NCBI GenBank assembly: GCA_963815195.1
Contig: CAWFGE010000018.1
Span: 1 to 64,000 of the forward strand
Direction: 5' to 3'
Origin: an uncultured Planctomycetaceae bacterium
GTDB taxonomy: Bacteria; Planctomycetota; Planctomycetia; Planctomycetales; Planctomycetaceae
DNA length: 64,000 nucleotides
Shown: positions 27,001 to 36,000 of the stretch, in pieces
Layout: each line of letters begins with the position of its first letter
Numbering within the stretch: the stretch's first letter is position 1
Made by a program: the position numbers

Positions 27001-30000
27001 CACAGAAGTCGCGGACTGATTAGAAAAGAGCGACCACCACTGGGCGATATCGACGAGGAGGCAATCGCATCGAAGATTCCTGCAACGTGGTCCAATCGAG
27101 AATCCATCTGTGCGATCGGAGGGTTGGTACTCCACCAAGATGCTCGAACACGGCCGCCTGATCTTCAATCCCGCATAGGGAAAACATCCCCTCCGAGCCC
27201 GAACAGCCAACGGCGGTACACAAAACCGAAATCTCCAAACCAGGCGAAGACCGCTGCAGGTTTCACGATTTGCTTCCTGTTGGCGGATGCATCGCCCGCC
27301 AGCGATAAGAGATTTTTCTAACGCGCAGCGGTCTAATTTTCGGCGCGCGACCGCTGCACTTACGCGAATTCTTGAACTCGCGCAGGCTTGTCCATCTTCA
27401 GCAAGTTGGCGTCGACGCCATTTGGGTGAGGTGTGCACCACCGACGCACGCAAGAAAGAGCGGGGCTCAGTCAGAACCAGTGTCAGACGCACCAGGAACG
27501 GATTCCAATATCTGAATTTGATGAGAATACGGCGATCACAATTCTGTGGTTCAAAGTCGACGCTCGGTCTCGTATCATCTTTAGATCACCCAGGGCAATC
27601 CCTGCGCGTGTCTTAGTTATTGCACCGCTATCGTGTTTCAGTCCGGGAGACCGACTCATGAACCGACATCCCAAATCACTGGCGTTCGGCGTTGCGGCTA
27701 TGGTCCTAATCGTCGGCTAGACCCGACCGACCTCCGCGCACGCCGCCGAGCCGGCCGAACGCGGCGCCGCGAAGAACGATCCGCTGGTCAAAAACATGGA
27801 CCTCAAGGCCGAGCCGCGGAAGGACTTCTAACGCTATGCTGCCGGTGGTTGGCTGGACCGGACGAACGCGCTGGCTAAATCGCGGGTTCCGTCATGGTGA
27901 CTACGAGGCTGCATGAGTTCCCGCGACCTCAAGAAACAGATTGACGCTTAGTGCCCCCGCCGTTCGGATTACTCGACGGAGGATCGAAACGAGATCTATC
28001 GACGAATTCAGTCCGGCAGTGGCGCGGCAAGACGCACCGCTTCTAGCTTGTCTGTGATGAAAGCAAGAACTTCTTGTTCGTTCGGCCGTGCGGTGATTCT
28101 TGTGGTGGACCCCGAAAACTGGACAGCCCAATAAGGTAGAATTTGCGATGTTCATTTGTCGCATTGGGAGGTTCCGATTATGACCAGGAAGCGTCGAGTT
28201 TTGGGGTCCGCGTTCAAAGCCAAGGTGGCGTTGGCGGCGGTCAAAGGGGATAGGACGACGGCTCAGTTGGCGTCGGAATTTGGCGTCCACACGAGCCAAG
28301 TCACGGCTTGGAAAAAGCAGTTGTTGTCGGGAGCCACTGAGTTGTTCACGGATGGCCGACGTAAGCGATCCGACGATCAATCGGCCAATGAGCAAGAACT
28401 CTATGAACAAATCGGCCGGCTGAAAATGGAAGTCGAGTGGCTCAAAAAAAAGTCGCTGACGCTGGATTAAGCCACGAGGTTTTGCGGGCATGGATCGAAC
28501 CGAAGCATTCCACGTTGAGCGTGTCGCGTCAGTGCGATCTGTTGGGATTGGCGCGGAGCAGTTGGTACTACGAACCTGGCGGCGAGACCGCGGAAAATTT
28601 GGAACTGATGCGGCGAATCGACGAGGAATACACGCGGCATCCGTTTTATGGTTCTCGCAAGATGGCCGAGTTGTTCGGCGTGAATCGCAAGCGAGTGCAG
28701 CGGCTGATGCGACAGATGGGAATCGAAGCGGTTGGACCGAAACGCCGCACGACCAAACCGGGGCGCGGACACAAGATTTACCCTTATTTACTGCGGAATG
28801 TGGAGGTTCTCCGGCCCAACCAGGTGTGGTCGAGCGACATCACTTACATCCCGCTTCGCCACGGGTTTTTGTATCTCGTGGCAGTGATGGACTGGTTCAG
28901 TCGCTACGTGTTGAGTTGGCGATTGTCGAACACGTTGGAGGGGAGTTTTTGCTTGGAGGCGTTGGACGAAGCCTTGTCGATCTCGCGGCCGGAGGTCTTC
29001 AACAGCGACCAGGGCAGCCAATTCACGGCGATCAAGTTCACCGAGCGATTGGAACGATTGAATGTCGCGATCAGTATGGATGGAAAAGGACGGTGCTTGG
29101 ACAACGTATTCATCGAGCGGCTGTGGCGGAGCGTGAAATACGAAGAGGTTTACTTGAAGGATTACACGGATGGTTGGGAGGCCGAGAGAAGCCTGCAGAG
29201 TTACTTTGAGTTCTATTGTGAGGAACGGATTCATCAGTCGCTGGGTTATCAAACGCCGGCGATGATCTACGAAGGAAAAGATTGAAGCCTGCACAAAGTG
29301 ATGGACGAAAAATGAAAACAAGTTTCGCGCAAAACCGGGAGGGAACTGGTGAGGTCTCGTCCCGGGCCCCTTGTCATCGGCGGCAGACGACGAGGCCTAT
29401 GAGGGGCCTCGTCTGCCGCTGACTCACACCACTAAACAACCCCGTTTGCTGTCCAAAGAATGGGGTCCACCTCAATGACCCCGGCGAACTTTCTGTTCAT
29501 AGGCGGCTCGGGCACGTTGCCGCAATAGTCCCAGTTCAAATTCCGCCAAACTGCCCTTGAGCCCCAACAGCAATCGATCATTGAGTTGGCGCGGATCGTA
29601 GACGCCGTCTTCATCGATGATTAACGTCTCCGTGATCGCACAGAGATCAATCAAGTGATGCCAGTCCCGGTTGTTTCGCGCCAAACGCGAAGCCTCCAAA
29701 GCCAGAACGGCCCCCGCTTCGCCTTCGCAGACCGCCGTGAGCAATCTTGCGAATCCCGGGCGGTCTTGAAGTCCGCTGCCCGAGCGGCCGAGATCATCAT
29801 CAATCACCGTAACCTTGCGGAACTTGAGCTGCCTGGCGTAATCCGCCAGAGCATATTGCCGTTTTTGACCTTCGCGGTGCTCCCGCACTTGGTGATCACT
29901 GGATTGCCGGACATAGACAAAAGCGGTTCGCTCTCGGTGTTCAGATCGAATCTTCTCGTTCATCGACGTTCTCCTGTTGAGATTGAGAGGGGAAGGATTG

Positions 30001-33000: not shown

Positions 33001-36000
33001 AGGCGGGCTAAGCCGAACAAATCAAATGTTCGGCCATAAAGCGGATGGGCCGGATCGGTGACGGTGATCTCACCGCGCGATAACTGAGTGACCAGAGGGG
33101 TCTTGTGATGGTCGGACCTTCCCAGTTCCGGGCGGACCGAGCAGCAAAATGTCGGCGGCTTCGCGAATAAACTTCCCCGTCGCCAGGTCCATGATTCGGC
33201 GTTTGGGGAGAGTGGGGTTGAAGGAAAAATCGAGTTGGTCGAGGGTCTTCATCTCGCGGAACTGGGCCAGCTTCAATCGCCGATCGATCGCCCGTTGGCG
33301 ACGGATTGCCAACTCATCGCTTAACACCAGTTCCAAGAACTCGGCATGCGACAAGCCGTTGCCGATGGCTTCTTGCAGCCTGACTTCCAAGGATTCGATC
33401 AGGCCGCTCAAGCGGAGTTGCTTCAGCATCTGCATTAAATTTCCATTCATCGGTTTTGCTCCTTTCGAAGAGCGGCTTTGACAAACTCGGAATAACTCAC
33501 CAGCGGCCGAATGACCGGGTGTTCGTCTAAAAACTCAAACTGGGCTTGCACGGGGGCGTTGCGGTCGATCAGCTTGCGAACGGTCCTCAGTCGGTAGGCT
33601 CCATACGAGTGGGCGGTGCGGCACGCGCGTTCGATGTCCTCGCGCGAATGCTTGTCGGCCAGTTGCTTGAGGCCCATCAACACCCGCACGCCCTCAATGC
33701 CGCGTGCTCCCAGCATGGCCGCGGACCAATCCCTGGTTTCCGGGCCGATTTCGCTGACTTTCGCCAGCCACCAGGTGGCTCCGCGTTCCACGCCGGAGAT
33801 TTTCCTCGCGTGCAAATGGGTGTTCTGCGTGCTGAACTTTCCCGGTTCTTGACGGGCATGCAAGGCGATCTGTTCCAGCTTGGCATTGAAGATGCGCACC
33901 AGCCGCGCATCCCAGCGCACCCAGACTTTCCTTCCCAGAAATTCCGGCGGCACGGAGTAATACGCCTTGTCCACGGAAATGTGCCCATCGCGATGCACGC
34001 TCCGCAGGGCTTCATGGAAAAACGGAAATCGTTCCAACGGCAACGGCAACGGAAACAGTGCTGACCGTTCCCGTTCGCGAAACGCCTTGCCCACTTGCTC
34101 TCTGGTCGTTCCATGAATCCGCGTATCGGCCACGGTGGATTCCCAGGCCCACAAGTGTTCGTTCTGTTCGCGCAGGCTTCGGAACGTCCGCCCTTTGAGT
34201 GCGTTTTCTTGGGCGTAGTCCACGCCGCGTTCGACCTTGCCTTTGTGTCGGGGCGTGCGAACCCGCGTGGGCAAAAACACCGTGCCGTAGTGCGCGGCGA
34301 ACGATTGAATCTTGGGGTTCAGTTCCGGGTCGAACCAATCCGCCTTGCTCACGGCGGCGCGCAAGTTATCGATGATCAGAGTCTTGGGCACACCTCCAAA
34401 ATGCCAGAACGCACTCTCCAGACACCGAATGAAGTTGTCGGTGGTCTGGCGATCGATCGCTTCCGTGTAGCCTTTACGGCTGTGGCTCAGCACGACCCGC
34501 AACACGTGTGGCCGGCGACGACGGCCGTTCTCATCCACGACGGCCGCGGCTTGGCCAAAGTCCACTTGAGCTTCCGCGCCGGGTGCGCATTCCAATCGAC
34601 GAAACGGCAACTCCTTCGAAGACCGCAACTGCCGCACGAAGCGTTTCACGCTGTCGTCACCATGGGGAAAATCATGGTCATTCGACAGGTCCTGGAAAAT
34701 TCGCTGCGCGGAAAGTCCCTGGCCGAGCTTTTCTAAAATGACATCCCGCCAAGGCTCGCAGCGGCTCCGCGAAAGTTCCGACTCGTCCTTCTCAGAATCG
34801 TCTTCAAGGGCCTCACGAAGGTCCTCCGACCCGGCGGGCAGTTGGCCCTCGGACCCGGTGGGCACTTTGGCCTCGGACCCGGTGGGCACTTTGGCCGGTT
34901 TTGAAGCGAGATGGGCGGCCACCGTTGAACGGTGAATGCCCAATTCGCGGGCAATCTTGCGCAAAGACCAGCCTTGAGCGCGCAAAGTGTGAATGGCTTG
35001 AACCGTGTCCATCGAGAGCTGATTCGACATCGCTTGTTTTCCTCTGAGAAAACTCAAAGGAGAACAAAATGTCGAATCCCTTTCCTCTCAAAATGGCCGG
35101 TTTTGAACTGCCCACAAGTGGCCGGTTTTCACTGCCCGGTGACAGCGGCGATCGTCGACTATTTTGACCAGCATCCCTTGGAAGGCTATCGCCGGCTGAC
35201 GTTCATGATGCTCGATGATGACATCGTCGCCACAAGCCCGGCGACGGTGTATCGCGTGCTCAAAGCGAACCGGCGATTGGACCGCAGGAAGTTCTCGCCG
35301 TCCAAGAAAGGCACAGGCTTCGTGCAGCCCTTAAAACCCCACGAACACTGGCACATCGACGTGTCTTACATCAACGTGGAAGGCACGTTTTACTACCTGA
35401 CCAGCGTCTTGGATGGCTGCAGCCGGGCCATTTTGCACTGGGACCTCAAGGAGTCGATGACCGAACAGGACGTGGAAGTTATTCTGCAAAAAGCGATCGA
35501 GACCTACCCCGGCGAATCGCCGCGGATCATCTCGGACAACGGGCCGCAGTTCATCGCGCGGGACTTCAAAGAGTTCATCCGCCTCGTGGGCGCCACACAC
35601 GTGCGGACCAGTCCGTACTATCCCCAATCGAACGGCAAGATCGAACGTTGGCACGGAAGTTTGAAGTCCGAATGTATCCGGCCGAGTTGTCCGGCCAACG
35701 TCGAGGAAGCCCGGCGAAAGATTCAAAGCTATGTGGATCATTACAATAATGTGCGGCTGCATTCGGCCATCGGCTATGTGACGCCCGCCGATAAACTGGC
35801 GGGCATCGAACAGGAGATCTTCACCGAACGCGACCGCAAGTTGGAAACCGCCCGAACGCGCCGTCAGGCCGCCCGGCAATTCGCGCGACAGGAGGTTGCT
35901 TGATGACAAGCCGCATGGCACAATCGAATGCGACCTGGGCGGAGGATACGGCTCTGCTGAGGAGCACCCGGAGCGCCGCCCCAGGGGCCAAGACCGGAGG

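Follow-up and report, generated by a model that had tools for sequence, protein, structure and literature searches.

The window analysed here is a 64,000-nucleotide stretch of contig C18 from an uncultured Planctomycetaceae bacterium. It contains an IS21-family transposon whose istB gene is interrupted by two elements, designated E1 and E2. Both are very probably minimal integrative elements moved by a large serine recombinase (LSR), which would excise as circles and reinsert at an istB codon, with the reading frame of their first gene, ORF1, serving as a direction switch.

Organization of the locus

All features of the IS21, E1, and E2 lay on the minus strand. The IS21 left end and leader (35058..35144, terminal TG at 35144) were placed within an IS3-type element and were followed by istA (33447..35057), an intact frame for a transposase of 536 aa that matched NCBIfam NF033546 at 258.8 bits (cut-off 160). 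The 5' part of istB (33119..33450; Pfam IstB_IS21, E 1.3e-25) had the Walker-A Lys codon as its last codon, and its frame continued into E1 as far as a stop at 33070. E1 itself comprised 2,476 bp (30643..33118) between two AA cores, the left at 33119..33120 (attL) and the right at 30641..30642 (attR). Its genes were the ORF1 body (32718..33119), a DUF5372-like sequence with a predicted small beta-barrel plus helix, whose stop overlapped the LSR start; ORF2 (32540..32824), with its own ribosome-binding site and an ATG that precedes the LSR start by 103 nt; and the recombinase gene encoding LSR1 (30646..32721, 691 aa). At the E1 right end (30643..30665), a G-rich ribosome-binding-like site and an ATG at 30653-30651 were found in the ORF1 frame across the core. 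The middle piece of istB (30451..30642; Pfam IstB_IS21, E 3.2e-10) extended from the Walker-A Lys to a Pro codon six codons past Walker B, where E2 began with its core within the CCC at 30453-30451. Only the left 1 kb of E2 was present (29475..30450; ORF1 to 30098, ORF2 30129-29941, and LSR2 from 29963), as this C18 copy was truncated at 29475 by an IS3-type element on the plus strand (28101..29474). An Rfam scan of the locus gave no match, and a promoter scan found no consensus site on the minus strand.

The Resolvase, Recombinase, and zinc-ribbon domains of LSR1 all scored above the Pfam cut-offs, and the catalytic Ser23 and four Cys residues were invariant across 32 LSR sequences. Pfam gave no match for DUF4368, LSR1 fell below all NCBIfam cut-offs, and its predicted structure was poor (pLDDT 54.5). 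E1 lacked the class features of DDE insertion sequences, namely a DDE transposase, terminal inverted repeats, and target duplication; its three ORFs filled the 2,476 bp, with no structural, replication, or conjugation genes of a prophage or ICE. Translation past the LSR stop into istB was considered and rejected; although in frame, it would not restore a canonical P-loop.

Junctions of E1 and E2 in the genome

The preliminary description placed every left end of E1 directly behind the Walker-A Lys codon of istB, had istB resume at every right end, and counted three IS21 types as hosts. A genome-wide examination agreed on each point (9/9 left ends; 7/7 right ends with flank; three types). The GxxGxGK motif claimed for all nine left junctions was in frame at eight, the exception being C7:79181, where a small deletion precedes the junction by a few codons. 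The AA core was present at 16/16 E1 junctions of the genome and target duplication was absent. The two empty istB sites reported earlier were found at C23:241690 and C9:15060, where istB is continuous, and four more uninterrupted Walker-A istB sites were located on C10, C14 (two), and C15. In total, 11 to 13 istB copies were occupied and six were empty, an occupancy of approximately two thirds. The full 691-codon LSR1 frame remained in only three of the nine copies, the other six being broken or cut in the assembly, and a decayed E1 right end was observed at C6:1454-1545.

LSR2 was 34.6% identical to LSR1, as had been indicated. The whole E2 is about 2.6 kb (C21:190-2788) and occurs as two variants that are 83.5% alike, in hosts that are 91.4% alike. 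Its position just after Walker B held at five left ends, all in one IS21 type, and this exact site is known from the source genome only. The LSR2 of C21, the only full-length LSR2 that was translated, had an internal stop at codon 233, and the same break occurred in C14 and C19. The best LSR2 relative from another genome reached 39% among 401 searched; a sister clade of E2 on rhizobial plasmids also lies within istB, elsewhere in the gene and on the opposite strand.

As noted earlier, the left and right flanks came from different IS21 types in three of the seven complete E1 copies (C12, C15, and C16). Such swapped flanks are expected from homologous recombination between 2.5-kb copies or from misassembly, not from the LSR reaction. 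An unlikely explanation is that a few old insertions have spread passively, carried by composite IS21 transposition with IstB acting in trans, and that homologous recombination then swapped the flanks. The mosaic look of the E1 variants, which do not follow the IS21 types, the layout of C12, which matches the outcome of a deletion between two directly repeated copies of E1, the confinement of all E2 copies to one IS21 type, and the breakage of most LSR copies would all suit this explanation. However, near-identical E1 copies occupy one codon in three unrelated IS21 types, and the relatives likewise do so in dozens of hosts. A recombinase is therefore needed, and passive spread may add to the LSR model but not replace it. 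A search for target duplications that pair the composite IS21/E1 copies found none that pairs.

It is extremely unlikely that collapsed repeats in the assembly produced the copy number, the nesting, and the swapped flanks. The many frameshifts in the assembly would agree with such an artefact, as would the three contigs (C14, C19, and C21) that stop exactly at the E1 right junction, each with the same istB piece and E2, and the fact that a clear IS21 target duplication (6 bp) was seen only in the empty C23 copy. Against this, E2, the istB piece, and E1 lay together on a single short-read contig (X1), possibly from the source sample, and each of the three IS21 types had junctions in short-read contigs, one of them from another study. 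An artefact is thus possible solely for the three swapped pairings. Right junctions with two further IS21 types occurred in short-read contigs of other samples (X2 and X4).

Relatives of E1 and choice of target

Among relatives of E1 with at least 52% identity, 40 distinct sites had a flank that could be read, and 37 of these were in istB at the Walker-A Lys codon. The host sequences were very varied, and one element was present in two different hosts (L020 and L022). Together with the junctions in the genome, these sites support the earlier proposal of site-specific LSR elements interrupting istB as far as E1 is concerned. The same proposal named the elements hyperparasites; insertion into istB at fixed sites stands, and the name itself is an interpretation; hitch-hiking at a neutral site would fit equally well. 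Relative L017 used another target, and its two cores both read TA, in agreement with the prediction of a 2-bp exchange. Relative L038 was inside a ParA-type Walker A, and L007 and L045 were inside recombinase genes of mobile elements.

Members of the wider LSR family were mostly inside other mobile genes (IS630, IS66, IS4-type, istA, and intron RT), and the family reaches istB in three separate clades, rhizobial plasmids among them. The statement that distant homologues on rhizobial plasmids are not in istB was accordingly wrong, since some do sit there. This family-wide preference for mobile genes and the split first gene described below are new beyond the preliminary description. Many database 'istB pseudogenes' located beside a 'recombinase family protein' are probably such insertions. 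The istB fragments of genome G372 were rejected as element insertions, being small IS21 derivatives without an LSR. Relatives of E1 or LSR2 were not found in viral contigs.

When joined, the ends of E1 form an imperfect palindrome, like the attP of LSRs. The inner arms matched at a mean of 5.9 of 9 positions, compared with at most 4.2 in shifted registers, and the outer arms at a mean of 8.7 of 16 (n = 26 for both); the window's own copy had an inner match of only 4/9. In its upstream half, the istB site agreed with the E1 half-site at the G pairs of the Walker-A glycine codons. A minimal Walker-A-like site pattern occurred at 229 sites in the genome. The His codon two past the Walker-A Lys also matched the E1 arm, and requiring it left 11 sites, five of them in istB. 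Type B istB lacks this His and is still used by E1, so that sequence explains only part of the target choice. Moreover, housekeeping AAA+ Walker-A sites scored as high as the empty istB sites, yet were unoccupied. istB is not distinguished by the DNA close to the core.

Two further explanations bear on this point. The LSR may be a relaxed Walker-A seeker that enters any suitable P-loop gene, with selection leaving the harmless istB insertions, a possibility that we regard as rather doubtful. The equal scores of other AAA+ sites and the insertions of L038, L007, and L045 are what it would predict; on the other hand, numerous sites among the 229 candidates are probably non-essential, yet none of the nine left ends lies in them, and the His-codon match narrows the choice toward istB, type B excepted. 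It is quite improbable that the circle is guided to istB by ORF1, ORF2, or the C-terminal extension of the LSR through recognition of IS21 proteins or transposition intermediates. Such guidance would account for target choice where istB is not separable by sequence alone, for the switching of clades among many unrelated mobile genes, and for the retention of ORF1 throughout the family. It would nevertheless require a single helper to recognise IS630, IS66, IS21, and intron products across clades, and the off-target sites indicate that the DNA pattern is at times enough.

ORF1 is split by integration

At all 37 left ends, the ORF1 frame was open without a start, and the remaining frames were blocked in 36 and 37. 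In the window, the ORF1 frame extended without interruption from the core, and its first 40 codons contained no ATG. At the right ends, an ATG was found in the ORF1 frame in 31 of 32 cases and a GTG in the 32nd, compared with an ATG in 1/32 for a free control frame. Among eight right ends lacking a near ATG, seven had an in-frame ATG further up. The element length was divisible by 3 in 30/30, and the same frame relation was read by eye in E2 and in an element of Sinorhizobium fredii NGR234. Integration thus parts the ORF1 start codon, at the right end, from the ORF1 body, at the left end; from this anatomy, ORF1 would be made only from the circle. In the joined form, the ORF1 start overlaps the LSR end and the ORF1 stop overlaps the LSR start. 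The near ATG sits inside the last LSR codons and inside an att arm, so its conservation may have other causes; the counts are also inflated by the relatedness of the loci.

The assignment of ORF1 to DUF5372 derives from top Atlas matches (0.94) and a weak profile match (E 0.0016), and a Pfam search gave no match. In a fold search, SH3/KOW-like structures matched no more than moderately (best Z 6.0, rmsd 3.2, 60 aligned), and a second structure search found nothing at E up to 0.001. ORF1 was kept throughout the family (521 clusters at E up to 0.001). ORF2 was found in 38 of 39 loci, with its first ~38 residues conserved.

Proposed mechanism and significance

In the favoured model, recombination of attL with attR would excise the element as a circle and restore istB, and the LSR would reinsert the circle at the identical codon of whichever IS21 istB it encounters. 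The split of ORF1 at integration would act as the direction switch. ORF2, which has its own start, could be produced while the element is integrated, and of the two it is the better candidate for an excision helper. ORF1, made in the circle, might raise LSR translation by coupling, favour integration, or both. Conserved codons of mobile genes would offer abundant, dispensable, and horizontally moving landing sites. No circle junction or excised site was found in contigs of four of the 17 sequencing runs listed, contigs being a form in which rare molecules drop out, and no joined ORF1 was found among 24 ORF1 proteins inspected.

We lean slightly toward the broader view that these elements represent an undescribed, large class of minimal LSR elements specialised in mobile elements. 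Their att sites would be tuned per clade to catalytic-motif codons (istB at four positions, istA and related integrases, IS630, IS66 tnpB, and intron RT), a start codon would be donated across attP with one gene read only in the circle, and the whole E1 circle would be coding. If this is true, these elements would switch transposition off reversibly, and their LSRs would form a natural library with diverse and degenerate targets. With about two thirds of the istB copies occupied, elements of this kind can be the dominant influence on IS21 dynamics. The split first gene points to a direction switch at the level of translation. A family of LSRs aimed at protein-motif codons, in which the target has changed repeatedly, would be useful for studying the evolution of LSR specificity and for integrase engineering.

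Comparison with known systems

Tn4451/Tn4453 (TnpX) and Tn5397 (TndX) are LSR transposons with a circular form, a 2-bp core, no duplication, and a switch formed at the circle junction. These transposons have cargo and insert at loosely defined sites, and their switch is a promoter, whereas that of E1 would be a joined reading frame and LSR1 lacks DUF4368. The passages of PMC10083194 that bear on the TndX clade mention it as a multi-targeting DUF4368 group; compared with the group as presented there, E1 has no DUF4368 and one dominant target gene family. The text passages and eight supplementary files of that article consulted contain no mention of IstB or IS21. Our literature search found no description of istB-targeting LSR elements, a result on which ISfinder entries and subscription papers could still bear.

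Phage serine integrases and gene-interrupting elements (phiC31, SPbeta SprA/YokA, skin, and XisF) share the three domains of LSR1, and YokA and the phiC31 integrase were weak PDB matches to it. Identity to LSR1 is only ~22%. Like E1, members of this group insert into coding sequences, which would be restored by precise excision; E1 differs in having no phage genes and in targeting another mobile element. Mobile elements that target mobile elements include IS1111-type elements, which enter Tn21 ends, and RmInt1, which enters ISRm2011-2. These resemble E1 in nested parasitism but use different enzymes and RNA-based targeting, and E1 gave no Rfam match.

The closest precedent is a multicopy 3.3-kb element of S. 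fredii NGR234 (pNGR234a 33949-37270), whose LSR is 39% identical to LSR1 over 643 residues and which has ten matching places on two plasmids. We take this element to be NGRIS-4 with y4bA. In the work of Perret et al. from 1997, NGRIS-4 was reportedly described as an IS, without an att mechanism or a split gene, and all of its copies are said to lie inside other ISs. In the four copies of this type that were examined (two from NGR234 and two from S. meliloti), the 2-bp core was in a transposase Lys codon. Like E1, the NGR234 element has a DUF5372 first gene and, as read by eye, a right-end start codon in frame with it. It differs from E1 in carrying an additional HTH gene, which E1 lacks, in its opposite insertion strand, and in its targets, which are transposases (istA-like and ISNCY) instead of istB.

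Two Insertions in One istB

The window carries, on the minus strand, an IS21 with an intact istA and an istB interrupted twice. At the Walker-A Lys codon, istB runs into an AA (33120-33119), followed by E1 (2,476 bp) and a second AA (30642-30641), after which istB resumes. E1 encodes LSR1, a 691-aa large serine recombinase (LSR) with Resolvase, Recombinase, and zinc-ribbon domains. E2, the second LSR element, starts at the Pro codon at 30453-30451, just after Walker B, and is cut short at 29475 by an IS3-type element. These coordinates bear out the stacking of two elements in one istB proposed in the preliminary description. 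The segments at 28101-29474 and 35145-36168 belong to distinct multicopy IS3-type elements: the latter contains the IS21 and the former cuts E2, resulting in a four-level nest.

Across the contigs of this genome, nine left and seven right ends of E1 with flanking sequence were found at one codon throughout, in three IS21 types, and the claimed location at the Walker-A Lys codon held at all of them. Three further contigs stop exactly at the right junction of E1, carrying on as istB and E2. With these and a decayed end on C6 included, occupied istB sites numbered 11 to 13 versus six uninterrupted ones. E2 had five left ends, all in a single IS21 type, and two right ends that resume istB. The short-read contigs support the junctions: one from run X1, possibly the source sample, spans E2, istB, and E1, two left-flank IS21 types occur in X1, and the remaining two right-flank types appear in contigs of X4 and of X2, which comes from another study. 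Neither an empty nor a circular joint was found in the short-read contigs. The E1 and E2 insertions are real and site-specific. IS21 transposition requires IstA and IstB, and Walker A and B are treated as crucial, according to PMC11208146; therefore, each insertion should disable the helper in cis.

The E2 variant on C16 was 83.5% identical to the other E2 copies and its istB piece 91.4% identical, and 39 of the 46 differences in the first 120 codons of LSR2, the E2 recombinase, were at third positions. This divergence fits two insertions better than joint ageing, although it is no proof. Full-length LSR1 frames remained in three of nine copies, and LSR2 has an internal stop. These broken frames count against current activity, although the assembly contains many indels, to which part of the breaks may be due.

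Left and right flanks of different IS21 types, which had been described as swapped, were present at C12, C15, and C16. At C12, the tail of the first IS21 follows beyond the end of the second, a layout that either a deletion between two E1 copies in direct orientation or assembly collapse would be expected to produce. Target duplications could not be paired for any composite copy. Because attL x attR recombination by an LSR yields empty hybrid sites rather than filled ones, homologous recombination or assembly error is the more likely source of the swaps.

Several other features were observed in these contigs. At C12:939-1282, one IS21 type ends within the istB tail of another. A decayed, AT-rich right end of E1 (C6:1371-1545, 80% identical) adjoins a 98%-identical istB half, which may reflect local decay or poor consensus. 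Short CRISPR-like arrays with one common repeat and a spacing of 71-75 occur at C7:38886-39265 (L150:384-766) and C15:142238-142635 (L151:5929-6335); the E1-carrying IS21 on C7 starts mid-repeat, and the repeat is not continued at its right flank. Distant LSR genes (C6:10146-11060, C8:118688-119911, C8:410669-411847, and C9:18629-19807), 23-24% identical to LSR1, served only as an outgroup.

Relatives and Their Targets

Relatives of E1 were collected as 55 loci of at least 52% identity, including the window, and removal of seven duplicates left 47. In seven of these, no flank next to a recognised AA core (the 2-bp junction sequence) was usable, giving 40 counted sites, with L048 counted via its duplicate L049. 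Thirty-seven of the 40 were in istB at the Walker-A Lys codon; of the others, L038 was in a ParA-type Walker A, L007 in a gene for a tyrosine recombinase, and L045 in the gene of another LSR. L017, one of the seven, carries TA at each end and is located where an AAA_25 frame ends. The E1 clade had an SH-aLRT support of 99, with the odd-site members nested singly. Family members lie inside other serine recombinase genes at L009:2100-2200 and L045:160-270, the target at L009 being of the same family.

The flank scan covered 51 distant loci (35-46% identity), 19 of 70 having been left out as duplicates or too short. A mobile-gene Pfam match adjoined the element in 32 (IS630-type 9, integrase core 6, IS66 4, IS4-type 4, RT 4, IstB 2, and IS1380, IS1595, and IS5-type 1 each), a count of adjacency in which insertion into the neighbour is not proven locus by locus. 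One locus lay by a transporter gene (DctP), and 18 showed nothing informative. The sole clear non-mobile target seen was the dctP gene of a TRAP transporter, which is split by the family member at L010:2090-4561.

istB was targeted in three clades: that of E1; L102/L103, whose site is upstream of Walker A and which are nested within a set of elements that target RT; and E2 together with its sister clade (support 100). This sister clade consists of rhizobial plasmid elements inside the istB Walker A on the opposite strand. The preliminary description had placed the rhizobial homologues outside istB; on the contrary, all six elements examined in this clade were in istB on the right side, and five of six on both sides. 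Since the tree backbone differed between two runs, no order of events is claimed. In another genome (G372, L144-L147), at least five short IS21 derivatives retain just the 3' end of istB, starting at Walker B, with no LSR nearby.

A First Gene Split by Integration

ORF1, the first gene, resembles DUF5372 and was modelled as a small beta-barrel with a helix. In all 37 distinct left ends, its conserved frame was open as far as the core, whereas a stop fell in the first 80 codons of the other two frames in 36 and 37 of these ends. The first 33 codons of ORF1 lacked ATG except in L097, where ATG spans the core. At the right end, ATG occurred in the ORF1-joining frame in 31 of 32 distinct ends (GTG in the remaining one), as compared with 1 of 32 in the free control frame; the third frame was unusable as a control because it contains the LSR stop. 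These counts are inflated by kinship of the loci, and the near ATG falls inside both the att arm and the last LSR codons. Of eight right ends without a near ATG, seven have an in-frame ATG 12 or 16 codons upstream with no stop between. The core-to-core length was divisible by three in 30 of 30 loci of ten different lengths. The same frame relation was readable by eye in E2 and in the 3.3-kb multicopy LSR element of Sinorhizobium fredii NGR234, and ORF1 of the C16 E2 variant has no internal ATG.

ORF2, the second small ORF, had a ribosome-binding site and an ATG of its own in 38 of 39 loci. In the integrated state, ORF2 and the LSR would be made, probably by read-through from IS21, because E1 always points in the direction of istB; ORF1 would be made from the putative circle only.

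Recognition of the Target Site

When joined, the ends of the E1 family form an imperfect palindrome about the core. The host upstream arm and the element arm have in common the G pairs -9/-8 and -3/-2, which encode the Walker-A glycines; downstream matches are at +3, +5, and +6, with +5/+6 representing the His codon two after Lys. With a matrix built on the half-sites of relatives (29 left, 27 right), several housekeeping AAA+ genes scored level with empty istB sites. Furthermore, the minimal pattern was found in 229 open Walker-A-like frames of this genome, 11 with the His codon, of which five were istB. The arm match thus does not fully explain the choice of istB; the remaining specificity may come from selection against other insertions or from an added guide.

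Comparison with Known Elements

In a literature search below full-text level, we found no account of istB targeting by LSR elements or of such a split gene. The accessible portion of PMC10083194, supplements included, does not mention IstB or IS21. The codon-level targeting of other mobile genes is notable, as are the stacking of two elements in one istB and a gene, ORF1, that appears readable only from the putative circle. E1 and E2 are LSR mobile elements of a known type with novel features. A 2-bp core together with a circle is already known for the LSR elements Tn4451 and Tn5397 and for phage integrases. The nearest precedent for E1 is the 3.3-kb NGR234 element, which we take to be NGRIS-4, reportedly located inside other ISs.
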